A DNA stretch of 64,000 bases from Candidatus Thorarchaeota archaeon (lineage in GTDB: Archaea; Asgardarchaeota; Thorarchaeia; Thorarchaeales; Thorarchaeaceae), in NCBI GenBank assembly GCA_048884965.1, contig JBHLQH010000005.1, positions 1 to 64,000 of the forward strand, given 5' to 3'. The notes beneath the pieces are model-generated. The model was given only the letters and a program-made list of their open reading frames with translations, searched no databases and was not told where the DNA came from. The position numbers and the translations under genes were made by a program. Below, in pieces: positions 5,157 through 11,023 of the stretch (its first letter is position 1; the number at the start of each line of letters is the position of its first letter).

Positions 5157-6302
5157 CTAGTACTTTACTCCTGATCCAGTATTTAGGACGACTACATCCT
5201 CATCATAGTCAATATCTCCCGATTCAACAAGATTCCTTAGTCCTGCCAGTCCAACCGCCGCTTCTGGACAGATGTCAAGACCTTCCATTTTCGCAGCGAT
5301 ACTTCTTGTTGATTCAATTTCAATCTCTGCAACTGCGACAGCACCACCGCCGGATCTCCTTAAAGCGCTTAAAATGAGTCTTCCTGCGAAGGGGTGCGGT
5401 ACCCTCAGTCCATATGCCTTCGTCTGTCCATTTTGCCAAGATTCGATGGTATCCGCATCTGTTTCAAAAGCTGTGACCACAGGAGCGCAACCTTCGCTTT
5501 GAGCTGCATACAATCTAGGTCGTTCCTTTCCTATCATCCCGATTGCTTCAAGCTCATCAAGTCCTTTCCATATTCCAATCAATGCTGTACCTCCCCCTGT
5601 GGGGCAGATAATAGCATCAGGCACTTCCCAATTGAGTTGTTCGGCAATCTCAAACGCTAGGGTCTTCTTACCTTCGACTCTATATGGTTCCTTAGTGGTT
5701 GAAAGATCGATCCAGTTCCCATTTTGCTGTCGCATCACGCTAGCACTATCTGAAATAGTACCTGGACTTGATGCAGTAATTGCCCCATACATCGTGCAAT
5801 CCTTGAAGAATTGTGATGGAGTATCCTCAGGCATGAAGATATGACAGGGCACCCCAGCTGCAGCAGAATATGCGCTCGCTGATACTGCAGCATTTCCTGC
5901 TGAAGGAAGCGCGAAGGCTGTGGCTCCAAGTTCGACATGCTTCGAGATTGCCGCACAGAGACCTCGATCCTTGAAGCTCAGAGTTGGATTTCGAGACTCG
6001 TCTTTGATCCTTAGACAACGTAGTCCTAAGTGAGTTCCCAGTCGCCGTGTTAGAATTAGAGGTGTCCATCCTTCTCCCAAACTCAGGATGAAAGACGGTG
6101 ACTTTACTGGTAGCAGCATGGAGTATCTCCACATAGAATTGTCATCGACAGGAAACTCTCCACAATCAACAGCTTCCGCAACTAGATTGAGATCATATAT
6201 GGCCAGTAGCGGAGAGCCACAGATACAGAAGGTTGCTGGACGGTCTGAAGAATAGTTCTTGCCGCACTCCGGACACTCCAGATGAGATATATATGAAATC
6301 AT
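5157..6302 (-). CDS. thrC: Threonine synthase (PLP fold type II)
   Basis: CPECG...CICG Zn site, SLGEGWTPL, NPTLSFKDRG, SAGNAA, EGKKT, PTGGG, NTGSG; ATG at 6302 preferred. Confidence 0.88.
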   Translation of the reverse strand: MISYISHLECPECGKNYSSDRPATFCICGSPLLAIYDLNLVAEAVDCGEFPVDDNSMWRYSMLLPVKSPSFILSLGEGWTPLILTRRLGTHLGLRCLRIKDESRNPTLSFKDRGLCAAISKHVELGATAFALPSAGNAAVSASAYSAAAGVPCHIFMPEDTPSQFFKDCTMYGAITASSPGTISDSASVMRQQNGNWIDLSTTKEPYRVEGKKTLAFEIAEQLNWEVPDAIICPTGGGTALIGIWKGLDELEAIGMIGKERPRLYAAQSEGCAPVVTAFETDADTIESWQNGQTKAYGLRVPHPFAGRLILSALRRSGGGAVAVAEIEIESTRSIAAKMEGLDICPEAAVGLAGLRNLVESGDIDYDEDVVVLNTGSGVKY

Positions 6303-6380
6303 TTTCTCCCACGATATTACTTGCACAATTACCATTATATGTACGTATACATTGAAGTTCATTGTGCAGGAGTACATACG

Positions 6381-7589
6381 ATGGGTCAGCTAAAGCGGAT
6401 GGTTCTTCCATTTACTGCATTGGTTGGTATGAGTAGACTCAAGCTTGCTCTAATTTTGAATGGAGTTAATCCTAGAATTGGTGGCTTGCTAGTTTCTGGC
6501 CCAAAGGGTACTGGAAAAACGACTCTCGTCCGTGCATTTGCTGAACTTCTGCCTGAAGTAGATGTTGTAGAAGGATGCAGATTTGGATGTAATCCGAAAC
6601 GAGAGGATGCCCTATGTCCTGACTGTCAAGCTCATCTTGAGAAGGGTGAATCTCTCTCATCAAAGAGAAGAAAGATGCGAGTTGTGAACCTACCCCTATC
6701 AACAACTGAGGATCGTTTGATTGGCGCACTTGATATCGAAAGAGTTCTCTCCGAAGGCATCCAAGCTTTGAAACCTGGAATCCTCGCTGAAGCACATCAG
6801 AATGTTCTCTATGTTGATGAAGTTAATCTTCTTCCTGATCATTTAGTTGATGATTTGCTTGATGCTGCAGCAACGAAGGTCAATGTCATTGAGAGAGAGG
6901 GTATCTCGATTTCACACCCCTCTGATTTTGTCTTGATGGGATCTATGAATCCTGAAGAGGGTGAGCTGAGACCACAGCTTTTAGATCGTTTTCCACTACA
7001 TGTCGCAGTTGGCTCTGAGCATTCTATTGAAGATAGAATGGAATTGGTTCGACGAAATCTTGATTTTGAGAATGACCCTGATGCATTTATCGATAAATGG
7101 GAAGCAGAGCAAAGCGAACTACGAGAGCAGATAATCAATGGTCGGTCCCTACTTCCTGATGTAGTTCTTAGTGACGGTCAACTACGAGCCATTGCAATGG
7201 CTACAGATGCATTAGAAGTGGATGGAGTAAGACCTGATATCATCATCAGCAAAACAGCAATCACAATTGCAGCATTCTTCGGTAGAACCGAAGTCGAGCT
7301 AAAGGATATGCAACTAGCTGCTCAATTGACATTGAGTCATCGAACCCGTAGAGGTGGACTTCTGGAACCTCCTGCTGGTTCGGATATCAATGAGGCAATA
7401 ACCAGAGCTCATGAAGTAGCACAGAAACAGGATCGTCGAAAATCCCCTACTGAGGTTCCTCCTGAAGATAATAATGAAGAAAGTGGAGAATCTGGAGCTC
7501 GGATGAGTGGAGGCAAGTTCGGTAGACAGGATCAATTCGCTGATATGGGCATGGGTGAGGAAGGCAAAAAAAAACTCCGAAGAAAATAA
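6381..7589 (+). CDS. Mg/Co-chelatase ChlI/BchI-type AAA+ ATPase; 5' part of a frameshifted chlD-like gene
   Basis: PFTALVG, GPKGTGKTT, TEDRLIG, LYVDEVNLL, IEREGIS, MNPEEGELRPQLLDRF. Confidence 0.92.
   Translation: MGQLKRMVLPFTALVGMSRLKLALILNGVNPRIGGLLVSGPKGTGKTTLVRAFAELLPEVDVVEGCRFGCNPKREDALCPDCQAHLEKGESLSSKRRKMRVVNLPLSTTEDRLIGALDIERVLSEGIQALKPGILAEAHQNVLYVDEVNLLPDHLVDDLLDAAATKVNVIEREGISISHPSDFVLMGSMNPEEGELRPQLLDRFPLHVAVGSEHSIEDRMELVRRNLDFENDPDAFIDKWEAEQSELREQIINGRSLLPDVVLSDGQLRAIAMATDALEVDGVRPDIIISKTAITIAAFFGRTEVELKDMQLAAQLTLSHRTRRGGLLEPPAGSDINEAITRAHEVAQKQDRRKSPTEVPPEDNNEESGESGARMSGGKFGRQDQFADMGMGEEGKKKLRRK
7565..7574 (+). promoter_or_regulatory. Slippery site C-AAA-AAA-AAA; candidate -1 frameshift or transcriptional slippage
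   Basis: A9 run four codons before the stop; the -1 frame is open from here into the vWA ORF. Confidence 0.75.
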
Positions 7590-7633
7590 GGAATCCTCGT
7601 GGTAATCCCATTAAGGGAACCATTATTGCGGTA

Positions 7634-9070
7634 ATGATGGTAGTTGGCTTTGGATATTTCGCTTGGATTGCTTTTTGTCCTTTGAATCTGCTATTTGGAT
7701 ATCCCCCCGGTGGAATGCCTGTTGACAACATCCCTCTCTTAATTATCGATTCAATTCTTTACATCCCTGTCATCTACACCCTAGTAAAGCGCTGGTTCAA
7801 GACCATGTTGAAAAGGCAATCAGGACCGGCTTCAGGTATTGATACTGTGGAGTCAGGTCCAGCAACTCCTGAACCGGGCGATGAATGGGGTCGAGCCACA
7901 CGACCATATACTGGCGATATTGAAACGAAAATAACTGGTTCGAAATCAGATTTACGAGATGCAGCCCTTGCCATTGATTCAGCCTTCTTCATCAAGCTGC
8001 CAAATCTTGATACTGGTGAAACGCTCTTTGAATCTGAAGAGCTACACAAGAAAGCGATGATTAGATCTAGAGTTTCTTCAGGAAGTTGGTCCGATAAACG
8101 AGTGAGCTCAAGAGCTGTTGGATCGCTAAAGGCAATGGAGTCAAATAAGACCGGCAGACCTACACGATGGCAACAGCCTGTCGGCGAGATTAGTTCTATC
8201 CATCTGCCATCTACTATCATAGCTGCCATTTCACGAATTGGCAAGATTCCAAAAGGTGAGAGGATACGAATAGAACCTGAGGACATTAGAGAAAGCGTCT
8301 ACTCAGGAAAAACTCCTATGACCATTATATTGGTTGTAGATGTGAGTCTCTCAATGAAGGGAAGTCTATCTGATGTTCGAAAACTCATTGAACAGATTGA
8401 AAGGGAAACAAGAGGCTCAAAGGACCGTGTTGGGATAGTTGCCTTCAAAGATAGTGGAGCCATTGAAGTTCAGGCTCCAACAACAAATTGGAATAAGATA
8501 TACCGCGCTCTTGCAAGATTGAAGATATCGGGATTGACCCCATTGGCAGAGGGCTTGATGAAATCGCTTGAAGCAATAAAACGCGAGAGAATGAGGAATC
8601 CTGATATCGAACCGCTCGTCATTGTCATATCTGATTTTGCTCCTAACATTCCCCTTGCACAATCCGTAGGACCTGGACATGCTCAATACACACCTATCAA
8701 AGATTTAGTCAAGGCTTCTCGACTATTACGAAAACAGAACGTGAGGTTAGCAGCTGTCGATGTCGAAAAAGAACACCGAAAGTGGTCGCGCGCATTGAGA
8801 AGACCATTCCACGATGCACTAGAACTGGCAGCTATGCTACGAATGAAGAAGGAAGGGCATTCGGATATTATAGAAACGATACTCTATGTGAATGAGTTTC
8901 GACAGCATTTTGGTGCTCTTCTCATAGCAAAAACTAGTGGAGGAAGAGCATTCCTTGCAGAGGAGCTCGTTGGACAGCGATCAATCCTTAGCACAATTCT
9001 GAATACTGTAAGATCAAAGGCAAAGCTAGATGCTAAGACTTTGAAAGCTGCAGAAAGCTATCTACCGTGA
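7634..9070 (+). CDS. Two TM helices plus ChlD-type vWA domain; probable 3' part of the frameshifted gene
   Basis: MIDAS DVSLSM, SGLTPLAEGL, VISD; hydrophobic N-terminal hairpin; frame open upstream through the A9 run. Confidence 0.85.
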   Translation: MMVVGFGYFAWIAFCPLNLLFGYPPGGMPVDNIPLLIIDSILYIPVIYTLVKRWFKTMLKRQSGPASGIDTVESGPATPEPGDEWGRATRPYTGDIETKITGSKSDLRDAALAIDSAFFIKLPNLDTGETLFESEELHKKAMIRSRVSSGSWSDKRVSSRAVGSLKAMESNKTGRPTRWQQPVGEISSIHLPSTIIAAISRIGKIPKGERIRIEPEDIRESVYSGKTPMTIILVVDVSLSMKGSLSDVRKLIEQIERETRGSKDRVGIVAFKDSGAIEVQAPTTNWNKIYRALARLKISGLTPLAEGLMKSLEAIKRERMRNPDIEPLVIVISDFAPNIPLAQSVGPGHAQYTPIKDLVKASRLLRKQNVRLAAVDVEKEHRKWSRALRRPFHDALELAAMLRMKKEGHSDIIETILYVNEFRQHFGALLIAKTSGGRAFLAEELVGQRSILSTILNTVRSKAKLDAKTLKAAESYLP

Positions 9071-9117
9071 TATCTGCCTTCTCAATTAGATTATTAACGA
9101 ATGTCCTAACAGTCACA

Positions 9118-9225
9118 TGCGCATCAAGTCCGAGATATGCCTAGTGTCATAGTGAGTACCGAGAGCCTAGTATTAGGTGTTCGATGAAGGTACTTTTCAT
9201 ACTCTAGGTACAGGACTTGAGCGCA
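9118..9225 (+). ncRNA. Structured RNA, candidate H/ACA pseudouridylation guide
   Basis: Nested stems with G-U pairs on the + strand, K-turn-like GA/GAU-GA, internal pocket, ACA 14 nt below the upper stem. Confidence 0.55.
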
Positions 9226-9249
9226 CTACTCATCTTGGTGAAACGTTGA

Positions 9250-10257
9250 ATGCTTCATGGAAAGATACCCCCCGATGCATTGAAATCGCGAGTCTTCAAG
9301 CATCTAGGAACCGGGCACCCAAGTATCATCCTTGGTCCCGCTCTGGGCCAAGACGCCTCACTTATTCGTATTGGTGACCGTATCATCGTCGCCTCAACGG
9401 ATCCGATAACTGGCTCTGTAGAGGATATTGGTTGGTTAGCTGTTCATGTGAATGCCAATGACATCGCGACATTCGGAGTAGAACCAAAATGGTTCTTGAA
9501 TTCCATTATGCTTCCTACTGGTTCCACAGAAGAAGACCTTGAGAAAATAATGATCCAAATTGATGAGGCCGCAAGGTCTCTTGGTATTACTGTCGCTGGG
9601 GGACATACTGAAGTCACAGATGAGATTCAGAAACCAATAATCGCAGGTTTCATGATTGGTGAAACAACAGATGATAACTATGTGACCTCGGAGGGGGCCC
9701 AACCTGGAGATGCCCTTATTATGACGAAATCCGTCGCAATTGAGGGAACTGCTATTCTAGCATCCGAAGGACACGACTTTCTTCGAAATGAACTCGGATA
9801 TCAGTTGCTTGACGAAGCAATTGCCTTGAGGAATCAAATTAGTGTAGTTATGGATGGAATAACTGCTTTCAAGACAGGTTTTGTAACGGCAATGCATGAT
9901 CCCACAGAAGGTGGCCTTGCAAATGGGATTCATGAGATATGTGATGCAAGTAAGGTAGGATGCTCAATAGTGCAGGAGCAAATACCAGTGGAGGAATCGA
10001 CCAGAGCGCTATGCCAACTTCTAGAAATCGACCCGCTCCAGTTGATTAGTAGTGGTACTATGCTCATCACCTGTGAAGCAAGGAACGCTCAAAAAATACT
10101 CGATGCACTTCGACATAACGGCATTGAAGCTGCAGTCATCGGAACTATTGAGAAGGATTTTACAAAGCGGATCATATCACTTCAGGAAAAAGAGTCCACA
10201 CTGATTCGGCCTGAAACAGATGCATTATGGGATGGGTTAAAGCGAATTACATCATAA
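9250..10257 (+). CDS. AIR synthase-related (PurM/HypE/ThiL superfamily) protein
   Basis: GQDAS, STDPIT, NANDIAT, GGHTE, MHDPTEGG, DPLQLISSG. Confidence 0.88.
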   Translation: MLHGKIPPDALKSRVFKHLGTGHPSIILGPALGQDASLIRIGDRIIVASTDPITGSVEDIGWLAVHVNANDIATFGVEPKWFLNSIMLPTGSTEEDLEKIMIQIDEAARSLGITVAGGHTEVTDEIQKPIIAGFMIGETTDDNYVTSEGAQPGDALIMTKSVAIEGTAILASEGHDFLRNELGYQLLDEAIALRNQISVVMDGITAFKTGFVTAMHDPTEGGLANGIHEICDASKVGCSIVQEQIPVEESTRALCQLLEIDPLQLISSGTMLITCEARNAQKILDALRHNGIEAAVIGTIEKDFTKRIISLQEKESTLIRPETDALWDGLKRITS

Positions 10258-11023
10258 ATCTTCGTAGAGCTTCCATTTCTCTTTCAGTTATCGATTCAAT
10301 CAGAATGGGCGAGATTGCAATGTTGTCTTCAGTCATCACGACCCTTACATCATCTCCTTCTTTCCCATCAAGTTCAATACCTTCGAACCAGAAATAGTCT
10401 CTACCATGAGGGTCTACGCGATGAACAACATTGTTCGTCATTCGAACTCGAGCAGGCACAGCATAGATGATTTTTGTACTCTCATTTACATCACATGGAA
10501 AATTCACATTGATAGCATCAAATTCCTTAGGGAATTCTTTCTCAAGTGCCTTCTTCACGATATCGACTGCTATTCTACAGACGATGTCATAGTTGCGTGA
10601 TGTTCCACTTGTATTGAACCAATCATCGGGAGCTGCTTCTTGTGAAAATGCAATAGATGGATAGCCCTTCAAGGCGGCTTCAAATGCGGCTCCAACAGTT
10701 CCACTTGTAAACATACTCTGGTAGCCTATATTCCCTCCTGCATTTATCCCTGAAACGAAGAGGTCTATATCATGGATAAAATGAGATGCAAGAACGACAG
10801 AGTCTGCAGGGGTTCCGTCATGTGTGATTAGTCTATATCCTCCTTGATCACCTCTATCTGTAGCTCTCAATGGTCGATTCAATGTAAGTGACTTTCCTGT
10901 GGCACTTCTCTGACCTTCTGGGACCACAACTGAAAGATCGCAAAACTCTGAAAGAGCTTCTGCAAGACGAAGTAATCCTTGACTTTGTGGTCCATCATCG
11001 TTTGTTAAACAAACACGTTTCAC
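10247..11023 (-). CDS. surE: 5'/3'-nucleotidase SurE
   Basis: LTNDDG, GTPADSV, SGINAGGN, SGTVGAA. Confidence 0.93.
   Translation of the reverse strand: MKRVCLTNDDGPQSQGLLRLAEALSEFCDLSVVVPEGQRSATGKSLTLNRPLRATDRGDQGGYRLITHDGTPADSVVLASHFIHDIDLFVSGINAGGNIGYQSMFTSGTVGAAFEAALKGYPSIAFSQEAAPDDWFNTSGTSRNYDIVCRIAVDIVKKALEKEFPKEFDAINVNFPCDVNESTKIIYAVPARVRMTNNVVHRVDPHGRDYFWFEGIELDGKEGDDVRVVMTEDNIAISPILIESITEREMEALRRFMM

Follow-up and report, generated by a model that had tools for sequence, protein, structure and literature searches.

Recoding of chlD-like genes is an established phenomenon. Antonov et al. (2013; PMC3711429) described a magnesium-chelatase cluster, including genes of Methanocaldococcus and Methanococcus, with a −1 shift at poly-A, and the reporters for chlD poly-A sites showed 63%, 40% and 10% shifting for 11, 9 and 7 A's, figures that apply to sites of other species assayed in Escherichia coli (PMC3711429). 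In the review of Atkins et al. (2016; PMC5009743) the chlD site is given as A_AAA_AAR. Kuznetsov, Milenkin and Antonov (2022; PMC9227772) reported such frameshifted genes (fs-chlD) in genomes without ChlH/CobN, where their function is unknown; bearers that lack ChlH/CobN as well as the chlorophyll and B12 pathways include Spirochaeta thermophila and Brevefilum fermentans. Two further systems serve as points of comparison, namely, dnaX, for which transcriptional slippage at an A9 run is described in Thermus thermophilus (cited in PMC3711429), and CobS/CobT, in whose structures (preprints) the vWA adaptor sits docked at the pore of the hexameric ATPase and forms a bridge to the large subunit. 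Here we analyse a locus at 6381–9070 in a stretch of 64,000 nucleotides (nt) from a Candidatus Thorarchaeota archaeon (GenBank assembly GCA_048884965.1, contig JBHLQH010000005.1, positions 1 to 64,000 of the forward strand; the whole stretch is called the window below). It is very probably a gene of the fs-chlD type, encoding a short soluble ATPase and, through slippage, a longer ATPase-vWA protein held at the membrane.

With fs-chlD genes the locus shares a ChlI-type AAA+ open reading frame (ORF) and a vWA ORF overlapping at a −1 offset, a conserved poly-A or A_AAA_AAR site within the overlap, the existence of fused homologues, and a type known from both archaea and bacteria. That is, the domains, the offset and the conserved A-run match the published type, as had been proposed in a preliminary description of this DNA, and the recoding device itself is already known. 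The locus differs in having a two-helix hairpin and a linker (~165 residues) between the shift site and the ChlD-homologous part, in having no conserved downstream RNA structure, and in its bearer, an Asgard lineage that PMC3711429, PMC5009743 and PMC9227772 do not list. In the literature searched, as far as its text was accessible, we found no mention of transmembrane (TM) segments in connection with chlD recoding, nor of the breadth of the membrane-type lineage or its mutual exclusivity with CobN at the family level; within that scope these three features are new here. The tau and gamma forms of dnaX offer a second parallel, with one gene giving long and short AAA+ forms that assemble in one complex, and with the same kind of A-run (in E. 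coli an A_AAA_AAG ribosomal −1 shift). In the gene of this window, however, the default would be the short form and the shift would give the long one, and the protein family and complex are unrelated.

Two overlapping frames and a run of nine A's

The zero-frame ORF (ORF1; 6381–7589, forward strand as for all features of this gene) runs from an ATG at 6381 to a TAA at 7587–7589, and standard decoding is predicted to give a soluble ChlI-type AAA+ ATPase of 402 amino acids (aa), the short product. Its final codons, GGC AAA AAA AAA CTC CGA AGA AAA TAA, encode the C-terminus GKKKLRRK, and the run of nine A's among them (A9, 7566–7574) includes the heptamer A_AAA_AAA in register with the zero frame. 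The −1 frame has a stop at 7556–7558 and is then open from 7559 to 9070, reading ..KKTPKKIRNPRGNPIKGTIIAVMM.. across the run. Both frames are open over 31 nt only (7559–7589), a stretch that contains the run, so any frame change must fall within it. By computed translation, a −1 slip on A_AAA_AAA or a single A added to the mRNA yields a product of 896 aa, whose −1-frame portion occupies 7574–9070 (498 codons and the stop). On re-reading, the coordinates of the preliminary description, its A9 at 7566–7574 and its open −1 frame into the vWA ORF proved exact.

The nominal ATG of the vWA ORF lies at 7634, and the stretch on its 5' side (7575–7633; ..TPKKIRNPRGNPIKGTIIAV) codes in the −1 frame, by the evidence of codon-position entropy and a conserved motif. 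From the ORF1 stop to the ATG (44 nt), column entropies of 0.53/0.29/1.47 were obtained for codon positions 1/2/3 of the −1 frame, and 5' of the run the variable third position follows the zero frame; coding periodicity switches frame at the run. The peptide KKTPxxIRNPRGDPIKGTIC, encoded 5' of the ATG, ranks with the best-conserved parts of the junction. Moreover, in 35 of the 43 split loci the vWA frame contains no ATG, GTG or TTG from its upstream stop up to the conserved R-N-P-R-G motif.

Conservation of the run in Thorarchaeota

Orthologs were compared at 45 distinct Thorarchaeota loci with full upstream sequence (55–76% protein identity in the vWA half). With the ATPase frame as reference, the vWA frame lies at −1 in 42 loci, needs +1 in one (L045) and is in frame in two. 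A run of at least nine A's is present in 44 of the 45, in three codon registers: 33 loci have A9 in the same register and with the same 59-nt spacing to the ATG, and the remaining run variants are A9 to A11 in two other registers, with the offset kept. Every variant retains an in-register A_AAA_AAA or A_AAA_AAG; in L019 the run is interrupted, yet CCA AAA AAA TAA stands in register at the stop. The zero-frame stop falls 10–12 nt 3' of the run in most loci. In at least eight orthologs the codon before the run is GGT and a −1-frame TAA overlaps the start of the run, so that in those loci the run itself is the sole place where the frame can change; the shift window in L022 is 13 nt. From these alignments the A-run appears to be a conserved, selected recoding site and not a product of chance or of assembly error.

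Two kinds of irregular locus were seen. L045 (JAOUFI010000013.1) has a one-base deletion just 5' of the A9 run (GAGGC for GAAGGC) that sets its vWA frame at +1, and is either an allele needing the opposite slip or an assembly error. L015 / L083 (G007:C5) shows one in-frame TAA within the vWA frame, which may mark a pseudogene or a sequencing error.

In a wider search of the phylum the gene was found in 66 of the 76 family genomes, with 59 full-length matches, of which four are in frame (open frames of 893–913 aa). All four in-frame alleles have exactly one A more than their split relatives (A10 or A11). One of them sits on a SPAdes contig of 68x coverage, and at least some are therefore probably real. 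The preliminary description had looked to orthologs for the run and the offset; they turned out to be neither always fused nor always separate, with the run conserved.

Long runs are scarce in the genome under study: its 4.09 Mb hold four A/T runs of at least nine, against ~61 expected from composition, and the chlD-like A9 is the only one of the four that lies between two long ORFs. Observed over expected numbers genome-wide were 136/566 at length 7, 22/158 at length 8 and 4/44 at length 9, with none longer, i.e., a depletion of 4x, 7x and 11x at the three lengths. The other A9 runs of this genome (G000) are at C11:56237(−), C32:31836(+) and C90:245(+); the one on C11 is preceded by 28 codons of a frame that remains open for a further 419.

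The constraint on −1-frame codons, the missing start codons, the conserved run and the in-frame alleles together indicate that the locus is most simply read as one gene with a conserved recoding site and not as a gene pair, and this comparative evidence bears out the earlier proposal that a single gene yields both a soluble ATPase (402 aa) and an AAA+-TM-TM-vWA protein (here 896 aa). Databases have it otherwise, annotating an 'AAA family ATPase' and a 'VWA domain-containing protein' of 476–477 aa, as would be right if two ordinary genes were adjacent, the vWA protein starting at ATG 7634 and the A-run serving as a Lys-rich tail; an ATG or other Met codon does stand at this position in most orthologs. 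We consider such a pair highly improbable, as it does not account for the codon periodicity and strongly conserved peptide ahead of the ATG, for the 35 loci with no start codon ahead of that peptide, for a run that is invariant although AAA makes up just 46% of the Lys codons elsewhere in these genes, or for the existence of in-frame alleles and in-frame sister families (see below). Those same in-frame relatives, four of 59 with one extra A, together with the proneness of homopolymers to error, could be taken to mean that the split arose through an error of sequencing or assembly, or marks a pseudogene, the true gene being in frame with A10. This we regard as exceedingly improbable: the same −1 split recurs in 42 independently assembled genomes from many studies, coding constraint persists on both halves, and the distance from the run to the zero-frame stop is conserved in most loci.

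Domains of the predicted products

ORF1 matches positions 2–349 of TIGR02442 (447 bits), the BchI/ChlI model TIGR02030 (382 bits, E 1.8e–114) and the solved ChlI structure 6l8d (E 2.7e–96). Relative to 6l8d, Walker A (GPKGTGKT, 6498–6521) is conserved, Walker B (LYVDEVNLL, 6807–6833) is the same at every residue, and the sensor-1 and arginine-finger region (GSMNPEEG...RPQLLDRF, 6939–6992; alignment GSGNPEEGELRPQLLDRF) has a single difference, M for G, the arginine-finger segment being identical. Judged by these alignments, the N-terminal ChlI-type AAA+ module has intact ATPase motifs. The module also contains a four-Cys motif (CxxxC...CxxC, 6576–6626), in an insert that the cyanobacterial ChlI 6l8d is without; the CxxC comes nine residues after the CxxxC, and 6l8d has no Cys in the aligned region. 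Two Thorarchaeota orthologs (L045, L048) and one distant homologue of the membrane type (L071) share the motif, which may bind zinc or another metal.

The −1 frame matches positions 389–624 of TIGR02442, starting at residue 167 of its 503 aa, and positions 344–579 of TIGR02031. ORF1 corresponds to the N-terminal part of TIGR02442 and the −1 frame to its C-terminal part, so that the two frames jointly cover one ChlD-like protein. The vWA domain itself (8138–8761) was recognized by Pfam (VWA_2/VWA), by the TIGR02442 match, by AlphaFold and by matches to vWA folds. Its metal ion-dependent adhesion site (MIDAS) motif DxSxS lies at 8339–8353, and the residues D255, S257 and S259 are invariant in an alignment of 52 homologues. 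The AlphaFold model, made from a 52-sequence alignment and numbered from window base 7577, places the vWA domain confidently at residues 188–395, and beyond this core a C-terminal helical extension (8768–9067) at residues 398–479, with a predicted local distance difference test score (pLDDT) of 83–92.

Two predicted TM helices lie between the shift site and the vWA domain, helix 1 at 7607–7693 (AlphaFold helix 11–39) and helix 2 at 7730–7813 (AlphaFold helix 52–79), both with pLDDT 77–91; the pair had been noticed in the preliminary description, and a hydropathy scan and the model agree on it. Both hydrophobic stretches, directly 3' of the conserved basic peptide, are kept in every ortholog. 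Helix 2 is followed by the basic stretch KRWFKTMLKRQ and then by a linker (7826–8122) that is conserved in sequence and predicted to be disordered (residues 84–182, pLDDT <50), the last part of which begins the ChlD-homologous region. The flanks of the hairpin, before helix 1 and after helix 2, are rich in Lys and Arg, and one acidic residue occurs in the loop that joins the helices. Under the positive-inside rule the hairpin would have its two ends in the cytoplasm, with ATPase and vWA domain on the same side of the membrane.

Membrane-type relatives and CobN

In an exhaustive HMMER search the Thorarchaeota proteins were isolated at the 50% identity level. Their next relatives are single ORFs of ~800–1000 aa, most of them with strong hydrophobic segments at about residues 385–545; in typical ChlD-like matches of 605–797 aa, no hydrophobic segment separates AAA+ from vWA. 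The named members are from Thorarchaeota, Promethearchaeota and Bathyarchaeota, and one cluster member (P0165) is in frame at 889 aa. We made a quick FastTree tree of 61 full-length proteins picked by similarity to the query, which shows clustering by membrane state and nothing firmer: membrane state changes five times on the tree, against 15.7 in shuffles. The membrane anchor had at first been thought peculiar to this gene. It is instead common to a wider lineage of 800–1000-aa in-frame proteins, and the hairpin can be assigned, by sequence similarity, to such a lineage in Asgard and Bathyarchaeota archaea.

On the same tree the Thorarchaeota family and a sister family, f12, form a well-supported clade. 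The f12 gene was found in all 19 of its genomes, and the 19 full-length matches listed are all in frame (856–892 aa), with the hairpin. At 13 of the 16 f12 loci an in-register A_AAA_AAA or A_AAA_AAG occupies the homologous K-K site, immediately ahead of a DP motif, and the −1 frame ends 3 to ~20 codons past that site. This is the layout of dnaX, where slippage would yield the short form; no other ChlI-like gene was found in the five f12 genomes searched. We also considered a slippery site common to the whole membrane-type lineage, which is ruled out by the homologues of families f8, f10 and f15, where no in-register run occurs at the domain boundary.

The preliminary description had noted the absence of ChlH/CobN from the window, and this absence holds much more widely: CobN/ChlH (PF02514) gave no match in the window or in the whole genome (95.7% complete), none in 61 and 76 family genomes, none in 19 f12 genomes and none in 21 f22 genomes, and control genomes did score. 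CobN is present in other Asgard families, often adjoining short chlD genes without a membrane segment. The membrane type therefore stands out as a distinct lineage that does not work with the classical large subunit. One genome (G043) has both types at separate loci (C81 and C12), a membrane-type ChlD-like gene of 889 aa and a canonical 685-aa chlD adjoining cobN, a coexistence that argues for a distinct, non-chelatase function and offers a natural setting in which to compare the two. As no large subunit was found in the family, the product is not a classical tetrapyrrole chelatase, and in this the earlier suggestion stands.

How the frame may be changed

Two inverted repeats had been pointed out 3' of the run as hairpins. 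Both exist here, at 25–45 nt from the slip site (the second at ~45 nt), but they are not conserved. In a comparison with 33 ungapped orthologs, the outer pairs of hairpin 1 were preserved in only 6–19 loci, and Pro and Gly codons account for the constancy of its CCC/GGG core; hairpin 2, made of Thr-Ile and Met-Val codons, is retained in part and shows no compensating change. RNAalifold on 26 sequences gave a consensus of −0.04 kcal/mol with zero co-varying pairs, and the mean z-score of the minimum free energy downstream was −1.1. The loss of pairs in orthologs, the lack of covariation and the absence of a consensus fold lead us to reject the two hairpins as stimulators and to recognize no conserved one. 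An upstream stimulator resembling a Shine-Dalgarno sequence (GGAAGG) was likewise rejected, its conservation not going beyond that of coding sequence when judged by eye.

The chances of ribosomal and of RNA-polymerase slippage are roughly even. Slippage by the polymerase on a nine-A template would add or drop an A, the mixed mRNAs then being translated normally, and we put it just short of an even chance. It would account for the presence of at least nine A's in 44 of the 45 loci regardless of register, where the ribosomal heptamer needs seven, and it fits the lack of a conserved downstream RNA structure, the steeper depletion of A/T runs at greater length, and the persistence of A9, A10 and A11 alleles and of the +1 allele L045, which would be tolerable with heterogeneous transcripts; the A9 of Thermus dnaX is a precedent (cited in PMC3711429). 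It fits less well with L019, which has an in-register A7 only, and with the in-register A_AAA_AAR of f12, whose six or seven A's suit the ribosome better, and the published reporter tests do not discriminate the two mechanisms. A ribosomal −1 slip on A_AAA_AAA in the manner of dnaX, with the long run offering more slippery positions, is a serious contender that we place somewhat below even. For it speak the in-register A_AAA_AAA or A_AAA_AAG in every variant, the A7 of L019 in the correct register right at the stop codon, the 13 of 16 f12 loci that keep the heptamer (there the preceding codon ends in A despite an R/A/S change), and the treatment of chlD sites as A_AAA_AAR shift sites in the literature (PMC5009743). 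It is harder to reconcile with the want of a conserved stimulator, with L045, which would require +1, and with the conservation of the first two A's of the run, for which the heptamer has no need.

Genomic neighbours and searches for a target

The gene is flanked by threonine synthase (5157–6377, reverse strand) and, beyond a gap of ~180 nt after the vWA stop (9071–9249), by an AIR-synthase-family gene (9250–10257, forward) and surE (10247–11023, reverse), and most of the Thorarchaeota loci retrieved have this order of threonine synthase, chlD-like gene, AIR-synthase-family gene and surE. The AIR-synthase-family neighbour, found in 62 loci, is HypE/ThiL/SelD-like and scores under all cut-offs. 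None of the three (threonine synthase, AIR-synthase-like gene, surE) adjoins the f12 or other membrane-type genes; thus the synteny looks inherited rather than functional. There was no meaningful PADLOC match to anti-phage defence, and an ESM Atlas search with the hairpin-plus-linker part gave no usable match. A fold search of the model returned generic vWA matches alone, among them the NorD vWA structures 9qh8 and 9qh6, and no pointer to a target.

Discussion

We propose that this fs-chlD-type gene works as follows. Some of the expression events would pass into the −1 frame at the A9 run, the ribosome slipping back on A_AAA_AAA or the polymerase adding an A, and the resulting 896-aa product would carry the same ATPase as the short form, then a basic segment, the TM hairpin, the conserved flexible linker and a vWA domain with intact MIDAS. 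If ChlI/ChlD and CobS/CobT are a guide, an ATPase ring would consist mostly of the short form, with the long form incorporated and displaying its vWA adaptor, here tethered at the inner face of the membrane. A motor with such a tethered adaptor would act on a membrane-associated target, which would not be a tetrapyrrole bound by CobN/ChlH. That both products are made, and their ratio, topology, assembly into a ring and target, we infer from these comparisons.

Compared with ChlIDH and CobNST, the gene has an AAA+ module close to ChlI and a vWA/MIDAS adaptor homologous to the C-terminus of ChlD; it differs in the lack of a large subunit in genome and family, in the membrane anchoring of the adaptor, and in scores that stay below the cut-offs. 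The MoxR AAA+/vWA pairs (NorQ/NorD) likewise combine an ATPase ring with a vWA/MIDAS adaptor that acts on a partner complex. Here, however, the AAA+ clade is that of ChlI, the adaptor has its own copy of the AAA+ module and no target gene is adjacent, so the likeness is a functional analogy only. With that analogy as guide, the most likely role would be to mature or remodel a protein complex of the membrane with energy from ATP, in the MoxR/vWA style. The comparisons neither favour nor disfavour the membrane remodelling machine suggested in the preliminary description.

Several points weigh against the picture of a recoded, membrane-anchored motor. All NCBIfam scores are under the equivalog cut-offs (382 vs 467 bits for BchI, 238 vs 500 for BchD, and 447 and 106 bits for the two halves of TIGR02442, whose cut-off is 779). 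No conserved neighbour gene indicates a target in the family, in f12 or at other membrane-type loci. Orthologs have no conserved stimulatory structure 5–9 nt 3' of the site, which is atypical for efficient ribosomal −1 frameshifting. The f12 heptamer is missing at three of the 16 loci, which weakens the case for a clade-wide need for the short form; independent initiation at ATG 7634 could give a third product; and the bearers are uncultured organisms known from metagenome bins alone.

A broader proposal, which we make tentatively and see as possible rather than probable, is that these genes form part of a lineage of their own, made up of membrane-anchored ChlI/ChlD-like motors that are independent of CobN, act on a membrane target and are widespread in Asgard and Bathyarchaeota archaea, and that in Thorarchaeota and the sister clade a conserved slippage site sets the ratio of soluble ring to tethered adaptor. 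An example of such a task would be the maturation of a membrane enzyme complex, or the insertion of a metal cofactor into it.

For annotation, the consequence is that databases list the locus as two unrelated genes and place the vWA start inside the predicted coding region, an error that would hold for a whole archaeal family. The natural A9, A10 and A11 alleles could help to separate ribosomal from polymerase slippage. The membrane-tethered adaptor of this lineage may offer a clue to a puzzle in the literature, that of chlD/chlI complexes which lack a large subunit. Established cases of recoding in archaea are few, and the Thorarchaeota site would be a deeply conserved one from the Asgard group; if the proposal is true, Asgard archaea would have in it their first documented case of conserved programmed recoding, along with a new functional class of AAA+/vWA machine.

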